IMG/VR virus record: IMGVR_UViG_3300029623_000287
Length of the DNA: 9,743 nt
Source of the DNA: a virus
Taxonomy: Duplodnaviria > Heunggongvirae > Uroviricota > Caudoviricetes
Reading direction: 5' to 3' (one strand)
Part shown: positions 1 through 8,939 of the stretch, in pieces
Position numbering within the stretch: the stretch's first letter is position 1
How the letters are laid out: the number at the start of each line of letters is the position of its first letter
Notes under the pieces: model-generated
What the model saw: the letters and a program-made list of their open reading frames with translations, nothing else
Databases searched by the model: none
What the model was told of the DNA's origin: nothing
Position numbers and translations under genes: made by a program

Positions 1-2375
1 GTAAAAATTTCTGGCGTGCTTAAAGATGGCACAGGAAAACCAGTACAGAACTGCACCATTGTGCTGAAGGCCAGACGAACCAGCAGCACGGTGGTGGTGA
101 ACACGGTGGCCTCTGAAAATCCGGATGAAGCCGGACGTTACAGCATGGATGTTGAGCATGGTCAGTACAGCGTCACCCTGCTGGTTGAAGGTTTTCCGCC
201 TTCACATGCCGGGACCATTACCGTCTATGAAGGTTCCAGACCAGGTACGCTGAATGATTTTCTCGGTGCCATGACGGAGGATGATGTCCGACCGGAGGCA
301 CTGCGCCGCTTTGAGCAGATGGTGGAAGAAGCGGCACGCAACGCTGAAGCCGCCTCTCAGAGCGCAGCGGCGGCAAAGAAATCCGAAACTGCAGCGGCAT
401 CATCGAAGAACGCGGCGAAAACCTCAGAAACGAATGCAGCTAACAGCGCACAGGCGGCAGCGGCCTCGCAGACTGCATCGGCAAACTCCGCAACAGCAGC
501 TAAAAAATCAGAAACCAACGCGAAAAATAGCGAGACAGCCGCAAAGACGAGCGAAACCAACGCAAAGTCCAGCCAGACGGCAGCGAAGACCAGCGAAACG
601 AATGCTAAAGCCAGTGAAACTGCGGCAAAAAACAGCCAGGTTGCAGCAGCCCAAAGCGAGAGCGCGGCAGCCGGTTCTGCGACTTCAGCAGCTGGATCAG
701 CAACTGCTGCGGCTAACAGCCAGAAAGCTGCGAAGACGAGTGAAACTAACGCAAAGTCCAGCCAGACGGCAGCGAAGACCAGCGAAACGAATGCCAAAGC
801 CAGTGAAACTGCGGCGAAAAGCAGTCAGGATGCAGCGGCCCAAAGCGAGAGTGCCGCAGCCAGTTCTGCAAGCGCGGCGGCTGCTTCTGCTACTGCATCA
901 GCTAACAGTCAAAAAGCAGCAAAAACCAGTGAAACCAACGCAAAGGTGAGCGAAACAGCGGCTGCGAACTCAGCGAAAGCATCGGCAGCAAGCCAGACGG
1001 CAGCTAAAGCAAGCGAAGATGCAGCCAGAGAGTACGCAAGCCAGGCTGCGGAGCCGTATAAATATGTCTTACAGCCGCTGCCTGATGTGTGGATACCATT
1101 TAACGATTCGCTGGATATGATTACGGGCTTTTCGCCATCATATAAAAAAATTGTTATTGGTGACGATGAAATAACGATGCCTGGCGACAAGATTGTTAAG
1201 TTTAAACGTGCATCGAAAGCAACCTATATTAACAAATCTGGTGTGCTGACAGAGGCTGCCATTGACGAGCCACGATTTGAACGTGATGGCCTGCTTATTG
1301 AGGGGCAAAGAACAAACTACATGCTCAATTCGGAAAGCCCTGCCAGTTGGGGGCGATCGTCAAATATGGATGTGCCCGAAACAGGGACGGATAATTTTGG
1401 TTTTACCTATGGAAAGTTTGTCTGCAACGATTCTCTGATTGGGCAAACCTCAGCCATTAATATGGCATCAATTGCTGCAACAAAGTCAGTTGATGTCTCA
1501 GGCGATAATAAACACGTGACAACCTCATGTCGTTTTAAAACAGAACTGCAGGTAAGGTTGCGTATCCGGTTTGATAAATATGACGGTAGCGCAACAACTT
1601 TTCTTGGTGATGCGTATATTGATACACAAACGCTTGAAATTAATATGACAGGCGGTGCTGCCTCAAGAATTACAGCGAGAGTCAGAAAGGACGAAGCTAC
1701 CGGATGGATTTTTGCAGAGGCAACAATTCAGGCAATTGATGGGGAGTTAAAAATAGGCTCTCAGATACAGTATTCTCCTAAGCAGAGCGGGGCAACCGTA
1801 TCTGGTGACTATATTTATCTGGCCACCCCACAAGTAGAAGATGGGCCTTGTGTATCATCTTTTATTATATCAGGAGCGACGGCGGCGACCCGCGCAAGCG
1901 ATATAGTTACAGTTCCAATTAAGAATAATCTTTATAATCTTCCTTTTACGGTTCTTTGTGAGGTACATAAGAACTGGTATAAAACGCCNNNNNNNNNNNN
2001 NNNNNNNNNNGTGTTTTTGATACCGGCGGTCATCAAACCGGAGCGGCTATTATTCTTGGCTTCGGTCGTTCAACAGATTACGACGGATTTCCTTATTGTG
2101 ATATAGGTTTGGCTAACAGACGGGTAAACGAAAACGCATCGCTTGAAAAAATGGTTATGGGGATGCGTGTAAAGTCAGATCAGTCTACGTGCTCAGTAAG
2201 TAACGGGCGTATATCCAGCGAAAAGAAAGCCACATGGTCCTATATTCAGAACTCCGCAATTATCCGTATTGGAGGCCAGACTACAGCCGGGTTGCGTCAT
2301 TTATTTGGTCATGTCAGGAATTTCAGAATATGGCACAAGGCATTGACTGATGCTCAGATGGGGGAGTCAATCTAA
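1..2375 (+). CDS. Lambdoid prophage side tail fiber protein (Stf-like N-terminus, Ala/Ser/Thr-rich repeat shaft, LamG-like distal domain); 5' end at or just beyond the window edge; interrupted by a 22-N gap
   Basis: Frame 1 is open from nt 1 (VKISGVLKDGTGKPVQNC..., recalled from memory as matching the N-terminus of lambda Stf-type side tail fibers; GTG at 16 is an alternative in-window start). Residues ~110-340 are a low-complexity shaft of AAKTSETNAK-type repeats. After the gap the open frame continues in frame 3 (from 2013) to TAA at 2373-2375. The C-terminus ...GHVRNFRIWHKALTDAQM resembles the closing strand motif of LamG/concanavalin-A-like jelly-roll domains, and FTVLCEVHKNW just before the gap resembles the opening of such a domain, so the domain appears to span the gap and both sides are most likely one gene. 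Confidence 0.8.
541..960 (+). repeat. In-frame tandem repeat, 189-nt period (63 aa), two near-identical full units (541-729, 730-918) plus a partial third, nested in a longer low-complexity Ala/Ser/Thr-rich coding tract (~330-1030)
   Basis: Direct reading: gcaaagacgagcgaaaccaacgcaaagtccagccagacggcagcgaagaccagcgaaacgaatgc... at 541 recurs at 730 with a few substitutions and partially again at 919. The protein units read AAKTSETNAKSSQTAAKTSETNAKASETAAK(N/S)SQ...ANSQKA. Confidence 0.8.
1989..2010. other. Run of 22 N (assembly gap or masked bases) inside the tail fiber coding region
   Basis: Literal n characters at 1989..2010. The flanking open frames differ (frame 1 before, frame 3 after), consistent with an arbitrary gap length. 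Confidence 0.95.
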
Positions 2376-2656
2376 TGAAAGATTTAACACTCAAATTTGC
2401 AGACAGGGCCGACTTTTCGGCCTTTATGGATAGCATTGGCTATTATGATGACGAGTCGATGCAGGATGATATTCTTATTGACGTGATAGGTAACGTGTAC
2501 AAAGAAACCGGAGAACTGACTGAAGATGGCGAACCGGTATGTGTTAAGGAAGATGGATATTTTGTAAACGTGCGCATCATTAATGATGCAAAAAAATCGT
2601 CAATATTCGATGAATACGCGGTTGTAGTTGAACATCAACTTCGTGGCTGGATGTGA
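2375..2656 (+). CDS. Hypothetical small acidic protein (93 aa), translationally coupled to the tail fiber gene; possible fiber accessory or assembly protein
   Basis: Its ATG overlaps the tail fiber stop by one base (TAATG at 2373-2377). A GGGGAG Shine-Dalgarno site lies 8 nt upstream. The protein is rich in Asp/Glu with no obvious transmembrane segment. No family is recognised from sequence alone. Confidence 0.55.
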   Translation: MKDLTLKFADRADFSAFMDSIGYYDDESMQDDILIDVIGNVYKETGELTEDGEPVCVKEDGYFVNVRIINDAKKSSIFDEYAVVVEHQLRGWM

Positions 2657-2665
2657 GGGAGACAA

Positions 2666-3370
2666 ATGGCTACATCGACAGTAATTCCAGGAGACATCAC
2701 CACGTTAAAGGGAGATGTCAGTAAAGCCAAGGAAGATATTTCCTCAATTAACGGAAAAGTATCAACGCTTCAGGCTGATATGACCAGTGCAAAGCAGGAT
2801 ATCAGCACCAGATACACAAAAACTGAAGTTGATAATAAGCTGAAAAACAAACTGGAAGTGAACGCTCTGGAAAGCGGTCGTTATGGTGGAGATTTTTACC
2901 CGTTGACTGGCCGTGAAGCGTTTTATTTGTGGGGATTGGGCACGACTACAGCGGCGGCAAACCTTTATCTTAATCCTGACCCTGCAATTTCGTCTGTGCT
3001 GCGGTCAACATCGTCTATCCGCTATAAACATTCAGTAGAGACGATAGATTCAGAGCACGCCGATCTCATTTTCAGGATGCGCCCTGTGTGGTACAGGTCG
3101 CAATGCGAAAATGACAGGCGCGATTGGGGATTCTATGGATTGATTGCCGAGGAAGTAGGAGAAATTGCCCCCCAGTTTGTACACTGGCGATCAGCTAACG
3201 AAGATGATGCACCGGAAGCTATTTCCAGCAATGGCCTTGTTGCCGAAGGTGTAATGTACGAACGTCTGGTTGTTCCACTGATTCACCATATCCAGAAACT
3301 GACTGAAAGATTTGATGAACTTGAGTCAGAATTGAAGTTGTTATCAACTTCCCGAAGCGATATCGGATAA
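2666..3370 (+). CDS. Tail-fiber-like protein (234 aa): N-terminal coiled-coil repeats plus C-terminal intramolecular chaperone / peptidase S74-like autoprocessing domain
   Basis: A GAGGGAGA Shine-Dalgarno site lies 4-5 nt upstream of the ATG. The N-terminus has heptad-like repeats (DITTLKGDVSKAKEDISSINGKVSTLQADMTSAKQDIS). The C-terminal half carries the motif series recalled for S74 chaperone domains of phage fibers and tailspikes: a Ser...Lys pair spaced i/i+5 (SSIRYK), RPVWY, GLIAEEVGEIAPQFV, and a terminal helix (LIHHIQKLTERFDELESELKLL). Confidence 0.65.
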   Translation: MATSTVIPGDITTLKGDVSKAKEDISSINGKVSTLQADMTSAKQDISTRYTKTEVDNKLKNKLEVNALESGRYGGDFYPLTGREAFYLWGLGTTTAAANLYLNPDPAISSVLRSTSSIRYKHSVETIDSEHADLIFRMRPVWYRSQCENDRRDWGFYGLIAEEVGEIAPQFVHWRSANEDDAPEAISSNGLVAEGVMYERLVVPLIHHIQKLTERFDELESELKLLSTSRSDIG

Positions 3371-3380
3371 AGGAGGAGTA

Positions 3381-3674
3381 ATGGATATAACACCTTTTCT
3401 TCATGCGCTTTGTGCTGTGGCTGCGCAGGTACTGATTGGTCTTTTTACCGGAAACTGGGTTTACGGGGCGATAGCCGGTTGTACGTTCTTCATTGCGCGT
3501 GAACACACCCAGGCAGAATATCGCTGGATTGAAATGTTCGGGCATGGCAAGCGAATGAATATGCCGTGGTGGGGCGGTTTTGATCCGCGCGCGTGGGATG
3601 TGGCAAGCCTGATGGATTTTGCTGTGCCGGTGGTGGCGTGTCTGCTGCTCTGGCTGTTGGTTAATCGTGGGTGA
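3381..3674 (+). CDS. Small integral membrane protein (97 aa), function unknown; last + strand gene before the convergent sit operon
   Basis: A strong AGGAGG Shine-Dalgarno site lies 4 nt upstream of the ATG. Hydrophobic segments at roughly residues 8-38 and 78-94 flank a Trp/Arg-rich loop (EYRWIEMFGHGKRMNMPWWGGFDPRAWD). Stop TGA at 3672-3674. Confidence 0.6.
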   Translation: MDITPFLHALCAVAAQVLIGLFTGNWVYGAIAGCTFFIAREHTQAEYRWIEMFGHGKRMNMPWWGGFDPRAWDVASLMDFAVPVVACLLLWLLVNRG

Positions 3675-3765
3675 AAAAAGGTGAGCTGTATATGCAACGG
3701 AGGAAGAACCCCCGTTGCTGGAAGCCAGGAAAAAGTATCGGGTGTTGCTGTCCTCGGATATTGTG

Positions 3766-4623
3766 CTAATTGGGTGATAACAGATCCTGTGTATGGGAGT
3801 TTCCCTTTTTGCGTGCGTTGATGCTGGTAACGGCAAACGTCATGATGAACAAAACCGCGAATAAGACGACAATCGTCGGAGCTGGTGCGCTGTCGATAAA
3901 AAAGGACAACCAGACACCAGTCATTGACACTATTACCGATATGCCAGTCGCCAGTAGGAGCGCAATGTGAAAGCGTTGTGTCAGGAGTACCGCAATGGCG
4001 CCAGGCGCAATGAGCAGAGAAATGGAGAGAATGATACCTACCGCTTTCAGCGTCGCCACAATGGTCAGAGAGACCATGCACAGCAGCCCATAATGCAGCC
4101 ATCTCGTATGCAAACCGCTTACCTGCGCCTGTTGATAATCAAAGCTGAACAGCAAAAAATCCCGCCATTTTACGCTAATAACAAGTGTAACCAGCCCGGC
4201 AATAATCATCGTCTGGATTATATCGCCGATGGTTATCCCGAGCATGTCGCCGAAAAGAATATGGTCAAGATGTACGTCTGGTTTGACTGCAATATACAAG
4301 ATCAGACCTGCGGCAAACATGCCAGAAAAAACAATCCCCATCACTGTATCTTGCTTGATTCGGCTGTTGTCTTTCAGGTATCCCGTCGCCACCGCGCAGA
4401 ATACTCCGGCGACGAATGCCCCTGTAGCCAAAGGTAACCCCAGAATCCAGGCAAGCACGATGCCAGGAAAAACCGCATGACTCATCGCGTCACCCATCAG
4501 TGCCCAACCTTTCAGGACCAGAAAGACCGACAGCAGCGCACAGGGTATGGAAACTAACAGTGAAATCAGCAGTGCGTGACTCATAAAGGTGAACTGCAGT
4601 GGCTCCAGTAATAATGCCATCAT
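3766..4623 (-). CDS. sitD: Mn2+/Fe2+ ABC transporter permease SitD
   Basis: 285-aa polytopic membrane protein, paralogous to the upstream permease. Its ATG overlaps the sitC stop by 4 nt (ATGA). It is the last gene of the four-gene operon. Confidence 0.92.
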   Translation of the reverse strand: MMALLLEPLQFTFMSHALLISLLVSIPCALLSVFLVLKGWALMGDAMSHAVFPGIVLAWILGLPLATGAFVAGVFCAVATGYLKDNSRIKQDTVMGIVFSGMFAAGLILYIAVKPDVHLDHILFGDMLGITIGDIIQTMIIAGLVTLVISVKWRDFLLFSFDYQQAQVSGLHTRWLHYGLLCMVSLTIVATLKAVGIILSISLLIAPGAIAVLLTQRFHIALLLATGISVIVSMTGVWLSFFIDSAPAPTIVVLFAVLFIMTFAVTSINARKKGNSHTQDLLSPN

Positions 4624-5477
4624 GAGCGATCCTCCAGCGCCTTATGTGCACGCCGACGATTTGCCAAAAGCCCATGGGTGGGCGCAAAGACAAATGCTAA
4701 AAGAAACAGCAGTGTCTGCGCCACCACGATGATTCCACCTGTCGCGCCGTCCAGAAAGTAACTGACCCACGCGCCGAGGAAACTGGTTACACTGCCAATA
4801 GTTACAGCAATCATGAGCAGGCGGGGAAAACGATCGGTTAACAACCATGCTGTTGCACCGGGAGTCACCACCAGACAGATCACCAGAAAGGCACCAACCG
4901 TTTGCAGCGCCGCAACGGTCGAAACCGACAGCAGGGTGAAGAAGAGGAGTTTTAATCTGCCCGGATGCAATCCAATAGCACGGGCGTGATTCTCGTCGAA
5001 AAAGGTCACCATAAGATCTTTCCATTTGAAAAAAAGCACGATGATCGAGAGAATGCCAATGATAGTGAGTTGCAGGATATCCGCCGGATCGATTGCCAGA
5101 ATATTGCCCAGGACGATGGTCTGAATGTTCACAGATGTCGGGTTCAATGACACCATAAACAGCCCCAGGCCAAAAAAGGACGAGAAGATCAGGCCGATGA
5201 TGGCATCTTCTTTTAAGCGGGTGCGTTGGTTAAGAAACAGCATGCTGCCCGCAGCCAGTCCGCCGGAAAAGAAGGCTCCCAGAGAAAACGGAAGCCCCAG
5301 CATATATGCCCCCGCAACACCCGGGACAATAGAGTGCGACAACGCATCGCCAATCAGCGACCAGCCTTTTAGCATCAGATAGCATGACAGGAAAGCGCAG
5401 AGACCGCCGACCATCGCCGAGACCCACATCGCATTGAGCATATATTCATAGCTGAAGGGTTCCAGTAGCACGTTCAT
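4620..5477 (-). CDS. sitC: Mn2+/Fe2+ ABC transporter permease SitC
   Basis: 285-aa polytopic membrane protein of the ABC-3 (metal-type) permease family. Its ATG overlaps the sitB stop by 4 nt. Confidence 0.92.
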
Positions 5478-6301
5478 CTTTCTTCCCTCTGCACCGCTGA
5501 CGGTCGATGAGCCACAAAAGGGCGTTCATCGTCAGTAATAATGCTTTCTTCCGAGCCGTTAAGTGTGACATGGCGCAGTACGCCGCTAAAAGCCAGCTCC
5601 AGGTTCTCGGCTGTAAAAGTGGTGTCTGTCGGCCCGCTTGCCAGGACGGTGCCTTTGACCATGACCGTATAATCGCAAAATGTCGTGACGGATCCGAGAT
5701 TGTGTGTTGAGACAAGCATCGTTTTGCCTTCCGCGCGTAACTCCCTCAACAGGCTGATGATTTTGGCTTCGGTTTTCACATCAACGCCAGTAAAAGGTTC
5801 ATCCAGCAGGATCACATCACCCTGCTGTGCAATCGCTCTCGCCAGAAAGACGCGTTTCTTTTGTCCACCGGAAAGCTCGCCGATTTGTCGATGGCGAAAA
5901 TTCACCATATCGACACGTTCCAGCGCATCGGTGACAATTTGACGATCCCTCTTTTTGGCGATACGCAACATACCCATATGCCCATAGCGGCCCATCATCA
6001 CCACATCTTCCACCAGTACAGGAAATGACCAGTCAACCTCTTCTGACTGAGGGACGTAGGCAACCAGGTTTTTCTGTAACGCCTGTCGCGTGGGAATACC
6101 CAGAACAGATATCTTTCCGCTGGTCAGACGCACAAATCCCATAATCGCTTTAAACAACGTCGATTTTCCGGAACCGTTTACCCCAACCAGAGCGGCAATA
6201 GATCCACTTGGTACTGTGAAGGATGCATCGCGCAGTGCTGTGTGCCCGTTACGCCAGGTGACAGTAACATCATTAACGACAATGCCTGCAGATTGCATCA
6301 T
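5474..6301 (-). CDS. sitB: Mn2+/Fe2+ ABC transporter ATP-binding protein SitB
   Basis: Walker A ([10 protein letters not shown]), ABC signature (LSGGQKKR) and Walker B (VILLDEPF) are all present. The start overlaps the sitA stop (TAATGATG). Confidence 0.95.
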
Positions 6302-7215
6302 TATTTCTCCCTTTTCCCGGCTTTAATTCCCTGTACCAGCGTACTGGTAGTAACCTTAAGAAGGTCGATATACGTCGGTACCGGGCCGTTTTCTGTGCTC
6401 AGTGAATCGACATAGAGCACACCGCCGTAGTGTGCGCCGGTTTCACGCGCAACCTGACGCGCTGGTTTATCGGAAATCGTACTCTCGCTAAAGACTGCCG
6501 GGATATGATTTTTCTTAACTATATCAACAACCTTACGTACCTGCTGCGGTGTTCCTTGTTGATCGGCATTAATCGGCCACAGATAAAGCTCTTTTAGCCC
6601 CAAATCGCGTGCGAGATAAGAAAAAGCCCCTTCACTGGTGACCATCCATCGCTGATTCTCAGGGAGTTCCGTAATCTGCTTACGCAGGGGGGCAAGGGTT
6701 TGGGTAATCTTGGCTTTATAAGTATCGGCATTGCGTTGGTAGGTTTGTGCATTTGCCGGATCGTATTTTATCAACGCATCACGAATATTATCGACGTAAA
6801 TCAGAGCATTATCTGGCGACATCCATGCATGGGGGTTAGGTTTGCCCTCATAGGGTCCTTCGGTGATCCCTACAGGCGTCACACCCGAAGAGACAATTAC
6901 TTCTGGAACCCCATTGAGATGCTGGTAAAAGCGTTGGAACCACAATTCCAGATTCATACCATTGGCGAGAATCAGTTGTGCCCCCTGCGCACGTTTAATA
7001 TCGCCAGGGGTAGGCTGATACTCATGAATTTCTGCACCAGGCTTGGTTATGGATGAGACTTCTGCAGCATCTCCTGCCACGTTTTTGGCCATATCCGCGA
7101 TGATGGTAAATGTTGTAATGACCTTGAATTTTTCAGTTGCACTTGCCTGAAATGCGATCGAGCAGGTGAGTGCGAGGCCCCCCAAGAGCATGGTTACTTT
7201 TTTTATTGAGTGCAT
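6301..7215 (-). CDS. sitA: Periplasmic Mn2+/Fe2+-binding protein SitA (cluster A-I substrate-binding protein)
   Basis: 304 aa with an N-terminal signal peptide ([26 protein letters not shown]). The sequence matches SitA as I recall it (EKFKVITTF..., [12 protein letters not shown]..., NPHAWMSP...). It is the first gene of the operon, directly downstream of the Fur and MntR boxes. Confidence 0.95.
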
Positions 7216-7291: not shown

Positions 7292-7310
7292 GAAAATGAT
7301 TATCATTAAC
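7292..7310 (-). promoter_or_regulatory. Fur box in the sitA promoter region
   Basis: gaaaatgattatcattaac matches the 19-bp Fur consensus GATAATGATAATCATTATC at 16 of 19 positions, including the central AATGATxATCATT core. It lies 77-95 nt upstream of the sitA ATG. Confidence 0.7.
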
Positions 7311-7655: not shown

Positions 7656-8939
7656 ATGGACTTCCAGTTATATTCGCTCGGCGCAGCGTTAGTGTTTCAT
7701 GAAATATTTTTTCCTGAATCATCAACGGCAATGGCGTTAATTCTGGCAATGGGAACCTATGGTGCAGGTTATGTGGCACGTATTGTCGGAGCATTTATTT
7801 TCGGCAAAATGGGCGACAGAATAGGGCGTAAAAAAGTGCTCTTTATTACCATCACCATGATGGGGATCTGTACCACCTTAATTGGTGTGTTACCGACTTA
7901 TGCACAAATTGGTGTTTTTGCCCCCATCTTGCTGGTGACGCTGCGTATTATTCAGGGGTTGGGTGCAGGTGCGGAAATTTCCGGTGCCGGTACGATGCTG
8001 GCGGAATATGCGCCAAAAGGTAAGCGCGGAATTATCTCCTCATTTGTGGCTATGGGAACTAACTGCGGAACCCTGAGCGCAACGGCAATCTGGGCCTTTA
8101 TGTTCTTCATTCTCAGTAAAGAGGAACTGCTGGCGTGGGGATGGCGTATACCTTTCCTGGCGAGCGTTGTCGTGATGGTCTTTGCTATCTGGTTGCGTAT
8201 GAATCTGAAAGAAAGCCCGGTCTTTGAGAAGGTTAACGACAGCAACCAACCGACAGCAAAACCTGCACCTGCTGGTAGCATGTTCCAGAGCAAATCCTTC
8301 TGGCTGGCAACAGGGCTGCGTTTTGGTCAGGCTGGTAACTCCGGTTTAATTCAGACTTTCCTTGCAGGCTATTTAGTGCAGACGTTATTGTTTAACAAAG
8401 CAATTCCAACAGATGCATTGATGATCAGTTCGATTCTCGGCTTTATGACCATTCCGTTCCTTGGTTGGTTATCCGATAAAATTGGTCGCCGGATCCCGTA
8501 TATTATTATGAATACCTCTGCGATTGTGCTGGCGTGGCCAATGCTTTCTATCATCGTAGATAAAAGCTATGCCCCGAGCACCATTATGGTTGCACTGATT
8601 GTGATTCATAACTGTGCGGTGCTGGGATTATTTGCTCTGGAAAACATTACCATGGCAGAAATGTTCGGCTGTAAAAACCGCTTTACCCGGATGGCCATTT
8701 CTAAAGAAATTGGTGGTCTTATCGCTTCCGGTTTTGGTCCTATCCTGGCGGGTATTTTCTGCACCATGACGGAATCCTGGTATCCGATCGCCATTATGAT
8801 CATGGCATATTCAGTGATTGGTTTAATCTCTGCGCTGAAAATGCCAGAAGTGAAAGACCGTGATTTAAGTGCGCTGGAAGACGCTGCGGAAGATCAACCG
8901 CGTGTTGTAACAGCTGCGCAACCTTCCAGAAGTCTTTAA
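7656..8939 (+). CDS. ydfJ: MFS transporter, metabolite:H+ symporter (MHS) family, YdfJ-like; N-terminally truncated relative to full-length family members (possible pseudogene)
   Basis: 427-aa 11-12 TM protein. The first ATG at 7656 is preceded in frame by TGA at 7650-7652 and has no Shine-Dalgarno site. The protein begins inside the conserved TM1 motif (MDFQLYSLGAALVFHEIFFP, compared with ProP ...EWFDFGVYGFVAYALGKVFFP), so about 25-30 N-terminal residues appear to be missing. The conserved GDRIGRKK loop 2-3 motif is present. Confidence 0.88.
   Translation: MDFQLYSLGAALVFHEIFFPESSTAMALILAMGTYGAGYVARIVGAFIFGKMGDRIGRKKVLFITITMMGICTTLIGVLPTYAQIGVFAPILLVTLRIIQGLGAGAEISGAGTMLAEYAPKGKRGIISSFVAMGTNCGTLSATAIWAFMFFILSKEELLAWGWRIPFLASVVVMVFAIWLRMNLKESPVFEKVNDSNQPTAKPAPAGSMFQSKSFWLATGLRFGQAGNSGLIQTFLAGYLVQTLLFNKAIPTDALMISSILGFMTIPFLGWLSDKIGRRIPYIIMNTSAIVLAWPMLSIIVDKSYAPSTIMVALIVIHNCAVLGLFALENITMAEMFGCKNRFTRMAISKEIGGLIASGFGPILAGIFCTMTESWYPIAIMIMAYSVIGLISALKMPEVKDRDLSALEDAAEDQPRVVTAAQPSRSL

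Follow-up and report, generated by a model that had tools for sequence, protein, structure and literature searches.

A conserved small inner-membrane protein encoded behind the tail-fibre genes of lambdoid prophages and shared with bacterial chromosomes

Phages have a general hot spot for recombination and for cargo behind their receptor-binding-protein (RBP) genes. Known residents include the exclusion or conversion genes cor, llp, P2 Z/fun and gtr; the conversion genes of P22, Sf6 and epsilon15 sit there as well, and the T7 holin gene lies directly behind the fibre gene. HK97 gp15, T4 Imm and P22 SieA are small phage inner-membrane accessory proteins encoded in, or at the end of, the tail region. 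Cor (phi80, N15, T1) and Llp (T5) are RBP-adjacent lipoproteins. Morons, of which lom, bor and gp15 of HK97 and lambda are examples, are accessory genes with their own promoter and terminator, present or absent among related phages and inserted between conserved modules. Class I holins carry a charged cytoplasmic C-terminal tail and adopt an N-out/C-in topology. Here we compare with these systems a 97-aa protein, referred to below as X, which the first-pass annotation had proposed to be a superinfection-exclusion or membrane-targeting moron.

The window, i.e. the whole 9,743-nt stretch of DNA analysed, is the right end of a lambdoid prophage. A search with 1.9 kb of it (positions 2300–4200) returned a 100% match to E. 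coli AR_0017. The genes run from J and lom through those of a 791-aa side tail fibre, a 93-aa protein and a 234-aa S74 fibre to X, sitDCBA and ydfJ. Those from the side tail fibre up to the tfa remnant described below are on the plus strand. The side-tail-fibre (stf-like) gene (16..2375) is split by an N run at 1989–2010. It is followed by the gene of the 93-aa protein (2375..2656), a member of PHROG 1361, which has no assigned function, and by the gene (2666..3370) of the 234-aa tail-fibre protein, which carries a Peptidase_S74 chaperone domain at its C-terminus; this gene is in the same operon as X. These tail-fibre genes matched Pfam phage_tail_N and Peptidase_S74 and tail PHROGs. The stop codon of the fibre gene (3368–3370) is separated by 10 nt from X, which occupies 3381..3674 including the stop codon. 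Its ATG start, extent and length of 97 aa are exactly as first annotated, and direct reading places the perfect Shine-Dalgarno AGGAGG that had been pointed out at 3371..3376 (plus strand), with a 4-nt spacer to the ATG. Downstream of X lie what remains of the 3' end of a lambda-type tfa (tail-fibre-assembly) gene (3685..3750, plus strand; translation AVYATEEEPPLLEARKKYRVLL), sitDCBA on the other strand and convergent with X, and a 5'-truncated ydfJ. X had been placed at a prophage cargo boundary, and with tail-fibre genes upstream and sitDCBA downstream it does lie at one, behind RBP genes, a common place for accessory genes in temperate phages. In inducible lambda-like phages of infant faeces, the fibre-X-sitDCBA arrangement lies within the phage genome, with int and xis farther along; sitABCD is reported to be carried by 70% of these phages (PMC6969025). 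Since sitDCBA is inside the phage genome in inducible relatives, 'cargo boundary' is a fair name for the site.

X is a real gene that encodes a membrane protein under strong constraint. Its reading frame is also annotated by RefSeq (WP_021537976.1, 'hypothetical protein'), and residues 1–96 match positions 1–96 of the 97-position profile of PHROG 1443 (E-value 1.8e–58), a family that is already catalogued and whose function is uncharacterised. We found 570 homologues in a set of 5.8 billion proteins, and a profile search of 1.84 billion representatives (clusters defined at 50% identity, E-value ≤ 1e–3) yielded 449 clusters, all single-domain and mostly of ∼90–140 aa. Pairs with dS > 0.07 have dN/dS of 0.07–0.3; the copy of the P22-like phage Gally compared with that of the window gives dN 0.115, dS 0.717 and dN/dS 0.16. 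We found no comparable support for the two antisense ORFs, 3219..3836 and 3461..4102 (minus strand), both longer than X. The hexamer AGGAGG occurs once in the 9.7-kb window, and shuffled sequences contain 2.6 on average, hence it is not significant alone; its weight comes from its position 4 nt ahead of the ATG of a conserved ORF. Where the 234-aa fibre precedes X, the surrounding sequence AAAGGAGG(A/C)GTA is kept. The homology searches placed X in the uncharacterised PHROG 1443 family and in no characterised housekeeping or structural family. Other labels of the family are PHROG 34165 (a C-terminal fragment family), WP_000355360.1 and UniProt 'Ybl63', and a literature search under the WP numbers, the PHROG, the FIG number, Ybl63 or the topic returned no paper on it.

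Hydropathy, structure prediction and conservation all indicate that X is a genuine small membrane protein. It has two hydrophobic stretches (residues ∼5–39 and 74–96), in line with the two segments first reported, but the number of helices is probably three. The first stretch is 34 residues long with a break at G24-N25, and the AlphaFold2 model (37 homologues, mean pLDDT 92.5) contains helices at residues 5–23, 26–53 and 74–96; on these grounds three membrane helices are more likely than two. Helix 1 (residues 5–23, 3393..3449), identified by hydropathy, conservation and AlphaFold2, bears a conserved stripe H8-A12-Q16-G20-G24. The hydrophobic part of helix 2 spans residues 26–39 (3456..3497), and the helix continues to residue 53 in the model. 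Helix 3 (residues 77–94, 3609..3662), supported by hydropathy, AlphaFold2 and the family alignment, contains the conserved D79 and P83. Between the last two is the Trp/Arg-rich loop (residues 40–76, 3498..3608; all four segments on the plus strand), REHTQAEYRWI ... GKR.NMPWWGGFDPR.W, which by prediction faces the cytoplasm. The Trp/Arg richness noted at first reading is borne out by 4 Trp, 4 Arg and 1 Lys in residues 39–76. Across the family the transmembrane segments are variable and the loop is near-invariant (A-R-E-H-T-Q-A-E-Y-R-W-I ... G-K-R-x-N-M-P-W-W-G-G-F-D-x-R-x-W). R40, E41 and W72 are invariant in 61 diverse members (down to 30% identity), and H8, Q44, A45, E46 and P83 are kept in at least 90% of them. 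GxxxG-type motifs are present at G20xxxG24 and G29xxxG33.

Among 226 members, the loop has on average 5.6 K+R, the N-terminus and loop together 6.3, and the helix 1–2 turn and C-terminus together 0.96, and in 97% of members the charge is biased toward the side of the N-terminus and loop. By the positive-inside rule, this bias places the N-terminus and loop in the cytoplasm and the short C-terminus in the periplasm. The predicted topology is thus N-in/C-out with a cytoplasmic loop, charge bias being its basis. The polar cluster H8, R40, E41, Q44, E46 and D79 is predicted to face the cytoplasm, and H8, R40/E41 and D79 would sit at equal depth near the inner leaflet. We found no structural or sequence relative of X in PDB, Pfam, NCBIfam, PADLOC or BFVD. 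Pfam, NCBIfam and PADLOC searches with X and the 61 diverse members gave nothing above noise, and a sequence-profile search of the PDB with the family gave 0 matches at E ≤ 10. WWGGFD as a K+-channel filter and REHTQAE as a REXXE iron motif were both dropped on residue order and spacing. One Aeromonas member is labelled Lgt (prolipoprotein diacylglyceryl transferase). Lgt structures are present in the PDB, yet the family profile matched no PDB sequence at E ≤ 10 and Pfam gave no match for the diverse members; judged by these searches we take the name to be a mis-annotation.

Among the RBP-adjacent proteins, Cor and Llp resemble X in gene position, and an X remnant, frameshifted and behind an S74 fibre, lies at the corresponding place in the T1-like phage 6947. 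Unlike these lipoproteins, X has neither a basic n-region nor a conserved lipobox; its sole lipobox-like string, IAGC (residues 31–34), is inside helix 2, and the cysteine is not conserved across the family. X is also the same whatever the type of RBP, which distinguishes it from receptor-specific blockers. X resembles the lambda and HK97 morons in being an accessory gene, present or absent among related phages, between conserved modules; it is absent from the corresponding place in lambda and HK97 themselves. In this window, however, X does not fit the strict definition of a moron. X is packed 10 nt behind the fibre gene, and we detected no promoter-like or terminator-like plus-strand site around it in 2300–4000. 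The hairpin downstream of X (3695–3717) has an 11-nt loop and no T run.

The 10-nt gap and the lack of a flanking promoter or terminator suggest that in this prophage the late tail-fibre operon ends with X as its final intact cistron, and the gap together with the strong Shine-Dalgarno indicates translation from the late tail-fibre transcript. This assignment to late expression draws on the spacing of the genes and on a crude scan for promoters, and a weak promoter inside the fibre gene could possibly drive X. X is followed by the final ∼36 codons of lambda-type tfa (the HannyBb version, which is longer, shares 89% identity with residues 156–191 of lambda Tfa), so that X occupies the spot where tfa normally ends the late operon. 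In HannyBb-type loci a GC hairpin with a T run, i.e. a terminator, ends 21 nt 5' of the X start, which leaves no room for a promoter. X of this type would be reachable only by terminator-resistant late transcription. In lambda biology, Q-modified polymerase passes terminators. Only the Gally copy, judged by its flanking DNA, looks like a separate transcription unit: it is preceded by a terminator-like hairpin (5789–5809) and then a promoter-like site (5826–5855).

X is linked to RBP genes across independent phage types: in phages with tails of several types, whose hosts are alpha-, beta-, gamma- and delta-proteobacteria, members of the family stand directly behind a fibre or spike gene. A scan at one genome per species found the family in Gammaproteobacteria (Escherichia, Aeromonas, Leclercia, Silvania, Pantoea, Halomonas), Betaproteobacteria (Comamonas, Acidovorax, Pigmentiphaga), Alphaproteobacteria (Chelativorans, Devosia, many sphingomonads) and the deltaproteobacterium Desulfovibrio. 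When IMG/VR was scanned once more from a Comamonas seed, nearly all loci recovered were again enterobacterial. In at least 80 E. coli loci X is preceded by a fibre module made of stf, the 93-aa gene and, optionally, a 234- or 346-aa S74 fibre; a homologue of the 93-aa PHROG 1361 protein also precedes X in Comamonas prophages. The 5' neighbour of X in E. coli is of at least four kinds, and the 3' neighbour varies as well (sitD, a DNA invertase and others). In Gally, X lies between the tailspike gene and int, and the DNA 5' of it is non-coding and represents the decayed 3' end of an S74 fibre gene; X is intact. The Chelativorans prophage has the order tape measure, Dit, stf-like fibre, X and tail protein, with X within the tail operon. 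Halomonas has two small genes between the fibre gene and X, which precedes the gene of an internal virion protein; in Desulfovibrio X follows the spike gene with a 0-nt gap and precedes a tail-protein gene. X directly follows the terminase gene in the Aeromonas jumbo phage AVP1 (234 kb), and at two beta-proteobacterial loci it lies between a gene for a 370–383-aa protein and a diversity-generating-retroelement Avd gene. Because the region downstream of RBP genes is such a hot spot, the linkage may tell little about function.

The arrangement in E. coli, where X and ∼80 nt (including the tfa remnant) form a constant block amid variable flanks, raises the idea that X is a fibre-maturation helper that replaces the Tfa chaperone, or a sequence anchor for recombination of fibre cassettes. 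X does stand at the usual site of tfa, ahead of its last ∼36 codons. However, X is a membrane protein, S74 fibres have their own chaperone domain, and X is kept without a fibre in Gally and in bacterial chromosomes. Purifying selection on X also acts on the protein sequence, beyond the DNA. We therefore regard this idea as very improbable. Tai tail-assembly-interference proteins were considered as relatives of X and rejected as unrelated and soluble.

The variety of RBPs bears also on lysogenic conversion, in which X would, as an enzyme or a cofactor, modify LPS/O-antigen or another surface receptor and so prevent binding by the fibre of the very phage that encodes it. Conversion genes occupy this very position in P22, Sf6 and epsilon15, the invariant His/Glu/Asp/Arg cluster could be catalytic or metal-binding, and the Trp-rich loop could bind sugars. 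Yet the same X is found behind S74 fibres, lectin-type stf, P22-type tailspike and others, its loop is predicted to be cytoplasmic, and 97 aa is very small for an enzyme. X shows no similarity to the O-antigen/LPS conversion families GtrA and Oac or to any other Pfam or NCBIfam family. Nor are its members restricted to LPS-bearing hosts: the family is common in sphingomonads, which to our knowledge lack LPS. Conversion is hence hardly probable, and surface conversion and fibre assembly are both unlikely roles for X.

The first-pass annotation had considered X too far from any lysis cassette to be an obvious holin. The distance holds for E. coli lambdoids, with no lysis gene in either the window or the 32 kb of the AR_0017 locus, and for Gally, but not for the family. 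In Comamonas, Acidovorax and 'Pantoea' prophages ('Pantoea' being the label of that locus in its record), X is located between fibre genes and the lysis cassette, and the cassettes are of three types. In C. testosteroni and at the 'Pantoea' locus X is followed by a 125-aa multi-TM protein, a 99-aa three-TM protein, a 183-aa protein and Rz/Rz1; the 183-aa protein, homologous to the SLT-like protein of the Aeromonas phage cluster named below, is read as a putative endolysin. X of C. thiooxydans precedes a 105-aa TM protein, a SAR endolysin and Rz/Rz1. X of the Aeromonas phage 62AhydR11PP comes after genes for an SLT-like enzyme and for a 173-aa Gly-zipper protein and overlaps the end of this lysis-like cluster. 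X might accordingly be a late lysis-associated membrane protein, i.e. a holin, an antiholin or a lysis-timing factor. It resembles lambda S105 and T7 gp17.5 in size (∼100 aa), predicted three helices, probable late expression and, in these relatives, adjacency to lysis cassettes (three different ones); it also has GxxxG-type motifs and a place in the late operon, and the T7 holin is likewise encoded directly behind the fibre gene.

Several features nevertheless speak against lysis. Every adjoining cassette has its own holin-like proteins, and X does not co-vary with cassette type, which would be unexpected for a specific antiholin. X lacks the charged C-terminal tail of class I holins (it ends in ...LLVNRG, and the family mean there is 0.88 K+R in 226 members), its predicted N-in/C-out topology is the opposite of theirs, and its 38-residue invariant loop and family-wide conservation are not holin-like. 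Alignment with hhalign gave probabilities of 0.5% against lambda S and 0.1% against a neighbouring holin-like protein. X has no holin match in PHROGs or Pfam; 1 of 61 members touches Phage_holin_8 at an E-value of 0.0036, which is not a confident match. Homologues also exist in chromosomes outside phages. The judgement that X is not an obvious holin thus withstands the search for relatives, and a lysis role appears rather improbable.

Superinfection exclusion, the first proposal for X, supposes that it is expressed in the lysogen and blocks DNA entry at the inner membrane in the manner of HK97 gp15, T4 Imm and P22 SieA. X is likewise small and located in the inner membrane, and shares its site behind RBP genes with cor, llp, P2 Z/fun and gtr. 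The Gally copy, between tailspike and int and behind its terminator-like and promoter-like sites, would suit such a role, and X is kept intact by purifying selection though the adjoining fibre gene decays. Against this, X has no promoter of its own in the window, and in HannyBb-type loci a terminator lies directly upstream; HK97 gp15 is annotated with its own terminator, and X has none in the window. PHROGs returned only PHROG 1443, PHROG 34165 and a chance-level match, with no exclusion PHROG. PADLOC returned no match for X, and hhalign of X against HK97 gp15 gave a probability of 0.6%. The conserved domain is predicted to be cytoplasmic.

Copy number is a further argument. Identical or near-identical X is present in 1906 of 5426 complete E. 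coli genomes (35%), always as 'hypothetical protein'. At megablast-level identity it is found at a median of 2 and a maximum of 7 places per genome, including 3 in the genome that matches the window, and one E. ruysiae contig bears two copies with 97% and 94% protein identity to X of the window. Such co-resident, near-identical copies argue against the exclusion of kindred phages. Together with the chromosomal homologues, they set X apart from gp15, Imm and SieA. The exclusion interpretation is also weakened by the occurrence of the family in a 234-kb jumbo Aeromonas phage and at prophage-free chromosomal sites. Overall, the observation of the X ORF is confirmed and the interpretation first attached to it is partly supported; we consider exclusion itself unlikely.

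The family has host homologues in non-phage neighbourhoods. At five Aeromonas loci, from four species, X is located between pirin and RIO1 genes, and at the one locus with annotated neighbours no phage gene lies within 6 kb. Sphingomonad copies follow ligA (with prmA next), pnp or a PPIase gene, or diverge from a PhyH-like gene; these variable contexts could reflect mobility. The chromosomal copies are thus among housekeeping genes and outside defence islands, which further disfavours exclusion. None of the chromosomal neighbours (pirin, RIO1, ligA, prmA, pnp, PPIase, PhyH-like, cyclopropane-fatty-acid synthase) hinted at a function, and we recognised no regulatory box upstream of the Aeromonas X genes.

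Our preferred explanation, which we put forward tentatively, is that X is a host-derived auxiliary inner-membrane protein, made late, that conditions the membrane of the producing cell. The observations fit best with a protein that is not a virion component, and that travels with RBP cassettes and works independently of RBP type. As the last cistron of the late operon, X would be made mainly alongside virions; its synthesis, from a late message with its own strong ribosome-binding site, would fall chiefly in the period of virion production. The polar cluster (H8, R40, E41, Q44, E46, D79) and the amphipathic Trp/Arg loop would bind a conserved ligand or partner at the inner leaflet, and this binding would condition the membrane, e.g. 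keep it intact or closed until lysis. Topology, timing of expression and any target or effect of X are what we infer from sequence comparison and modelling. A broader and doubtful suggestion is that the family represents a new type of phage-host membrane effector: a protein of ∼100 residues and three helices with a fold that resembles no solved structure, used by bacteria for a conserved task at the inner membrane, repeatedly captured by phages of many types and kept by them next to RBP genes. Its members might act as minimal enzymes or ion-binding modules, or might regulate a universal membrane machine.

The case of X also shows that position alone is insufficient to call a small membrane ORF behind a tail-fibre gene a superinfection-exclusion moron. 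X is tiny, highly conserved and confidently predicted in structure, yet has no name, domain or literature. About one-third of the complete genomes of E. coli carry it, frequently as several copies; among them are the UTI89 and ST131 lineages, in which it lies beside sitABCD virulence cargo. Its family spans four classes of Proteobacteria. Being common to chromosomes, temperate phages and a jumbo phage, X is an easy experimental target that could reveal a membrane function borrowed by phages. If the broader suggestion is true, X would represent a new, receptor-independent way in which phages control the membrane of the producing cell, be it the timing of lysis, closure to DNA entry or membrane energisation.

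Directly behind the gene for the 97-aa inner-membrane protein X, the window carries a remnant (3685–3750, plus strand) of the 3' end of a lambda-type tail-fibre-assembly gene, tfa. Its counterpart in HannyBb (locus L001) occupies positions 6305–6421 and is 89% identical to residues 156–191 of lambda Tfa. The location of this remnant immediately behind X indicates that X sits where tfa would normally close the late operon. Ahead of X, between it and a 346-aa fibre gene, HannyBb carries the hairpin GGGGCCGAGCGCCCC (L001 5965–5979), which has T runs and resembles a bidirectional terminator. The hairpin ends 21 nt ahead of the X start codon in HannyBb and about 30 related loci.

Farther upstream in the window, the side-tail-fibre gene is broken into two ORFs (16–2106 and 2109–2375) by a run of 22 Ns at 1989–2010; in E. 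coli AR_0017 the gene is a single unbroken ORF of 791 aa. Extended Ala/Ser/Thr-rich repeats (AAKTSETNAK...) are present in the stf-like fibre at 300–1000, and because of this repeat region numerous spurious overlapping ORFs appear there on both strands. The tape-measure gene of the AR_0017 prophage (L003, the AR_0017 locus, 3504–6003) is annotated as frameshifted. Hence, despite its intact X and fibre genes, this prophage may be defective.

At the other side of X, a Fur-box-like sequence, GTTAATGATAATCATTTTC, is found upstream of sitA on the minus strand (about 7292–7310), with 2 mismatches versus the 19-mer consensus. This putative site is in line with PMC6969025, in which a Fur box is reported for sit operons carried by phages. 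Beyond it, ydfJ (7656–8939) is missing its 5' end, and RefSeq annotates it as partial, without the N-terminus. The truncation places the prophage–chromosome junction between sitA and ydfJ and identifies ydfJ as the integration site.

Members of the X family also occur in other phages and prophages. In Chelativorans (L111, 1560–7590), an stf-like fibre gene and X separate the Dit gene from the tail gene that comes next in a siphovirus tail operon; the pair resembles a two-gene cassette that was inserted within the structural module. The T1-like Escherichia phage 6947 harbors an unannotated, frameshifted X remnant (…ANIPWWGGFDWRAWDLPSLLD) behind an 859-aa fibre (L156 3965–4162), and a 42-aa fragment homologue from phage anhysbys is present in BFVD. 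Partial members are found on two 877-nt Desulfovibrio piger scaffolds (L123 and L125). A 2836-nt MAG contig labelled 'Collinsella sp.' (L089) shares 96–99% protein identity with the E. coli prophage region of the window (X, the 93-aa protein and the 234-aa fibre), which suggests binning contamination. In Comamonas nitrativorans (L115) and Pigmentiphaga humi (L116), at about 4800–6700 and 8080–8400, X has a 370–383-aa protein on one side and, on the other, a gene that matches Avd of diversity-generating retroelements, with a second Avd-like copy about 1.8 kb downstream. Judging from this gene neighbourhood, both loci may represent diversity-generating retroelements whose target is the gene preceding X.
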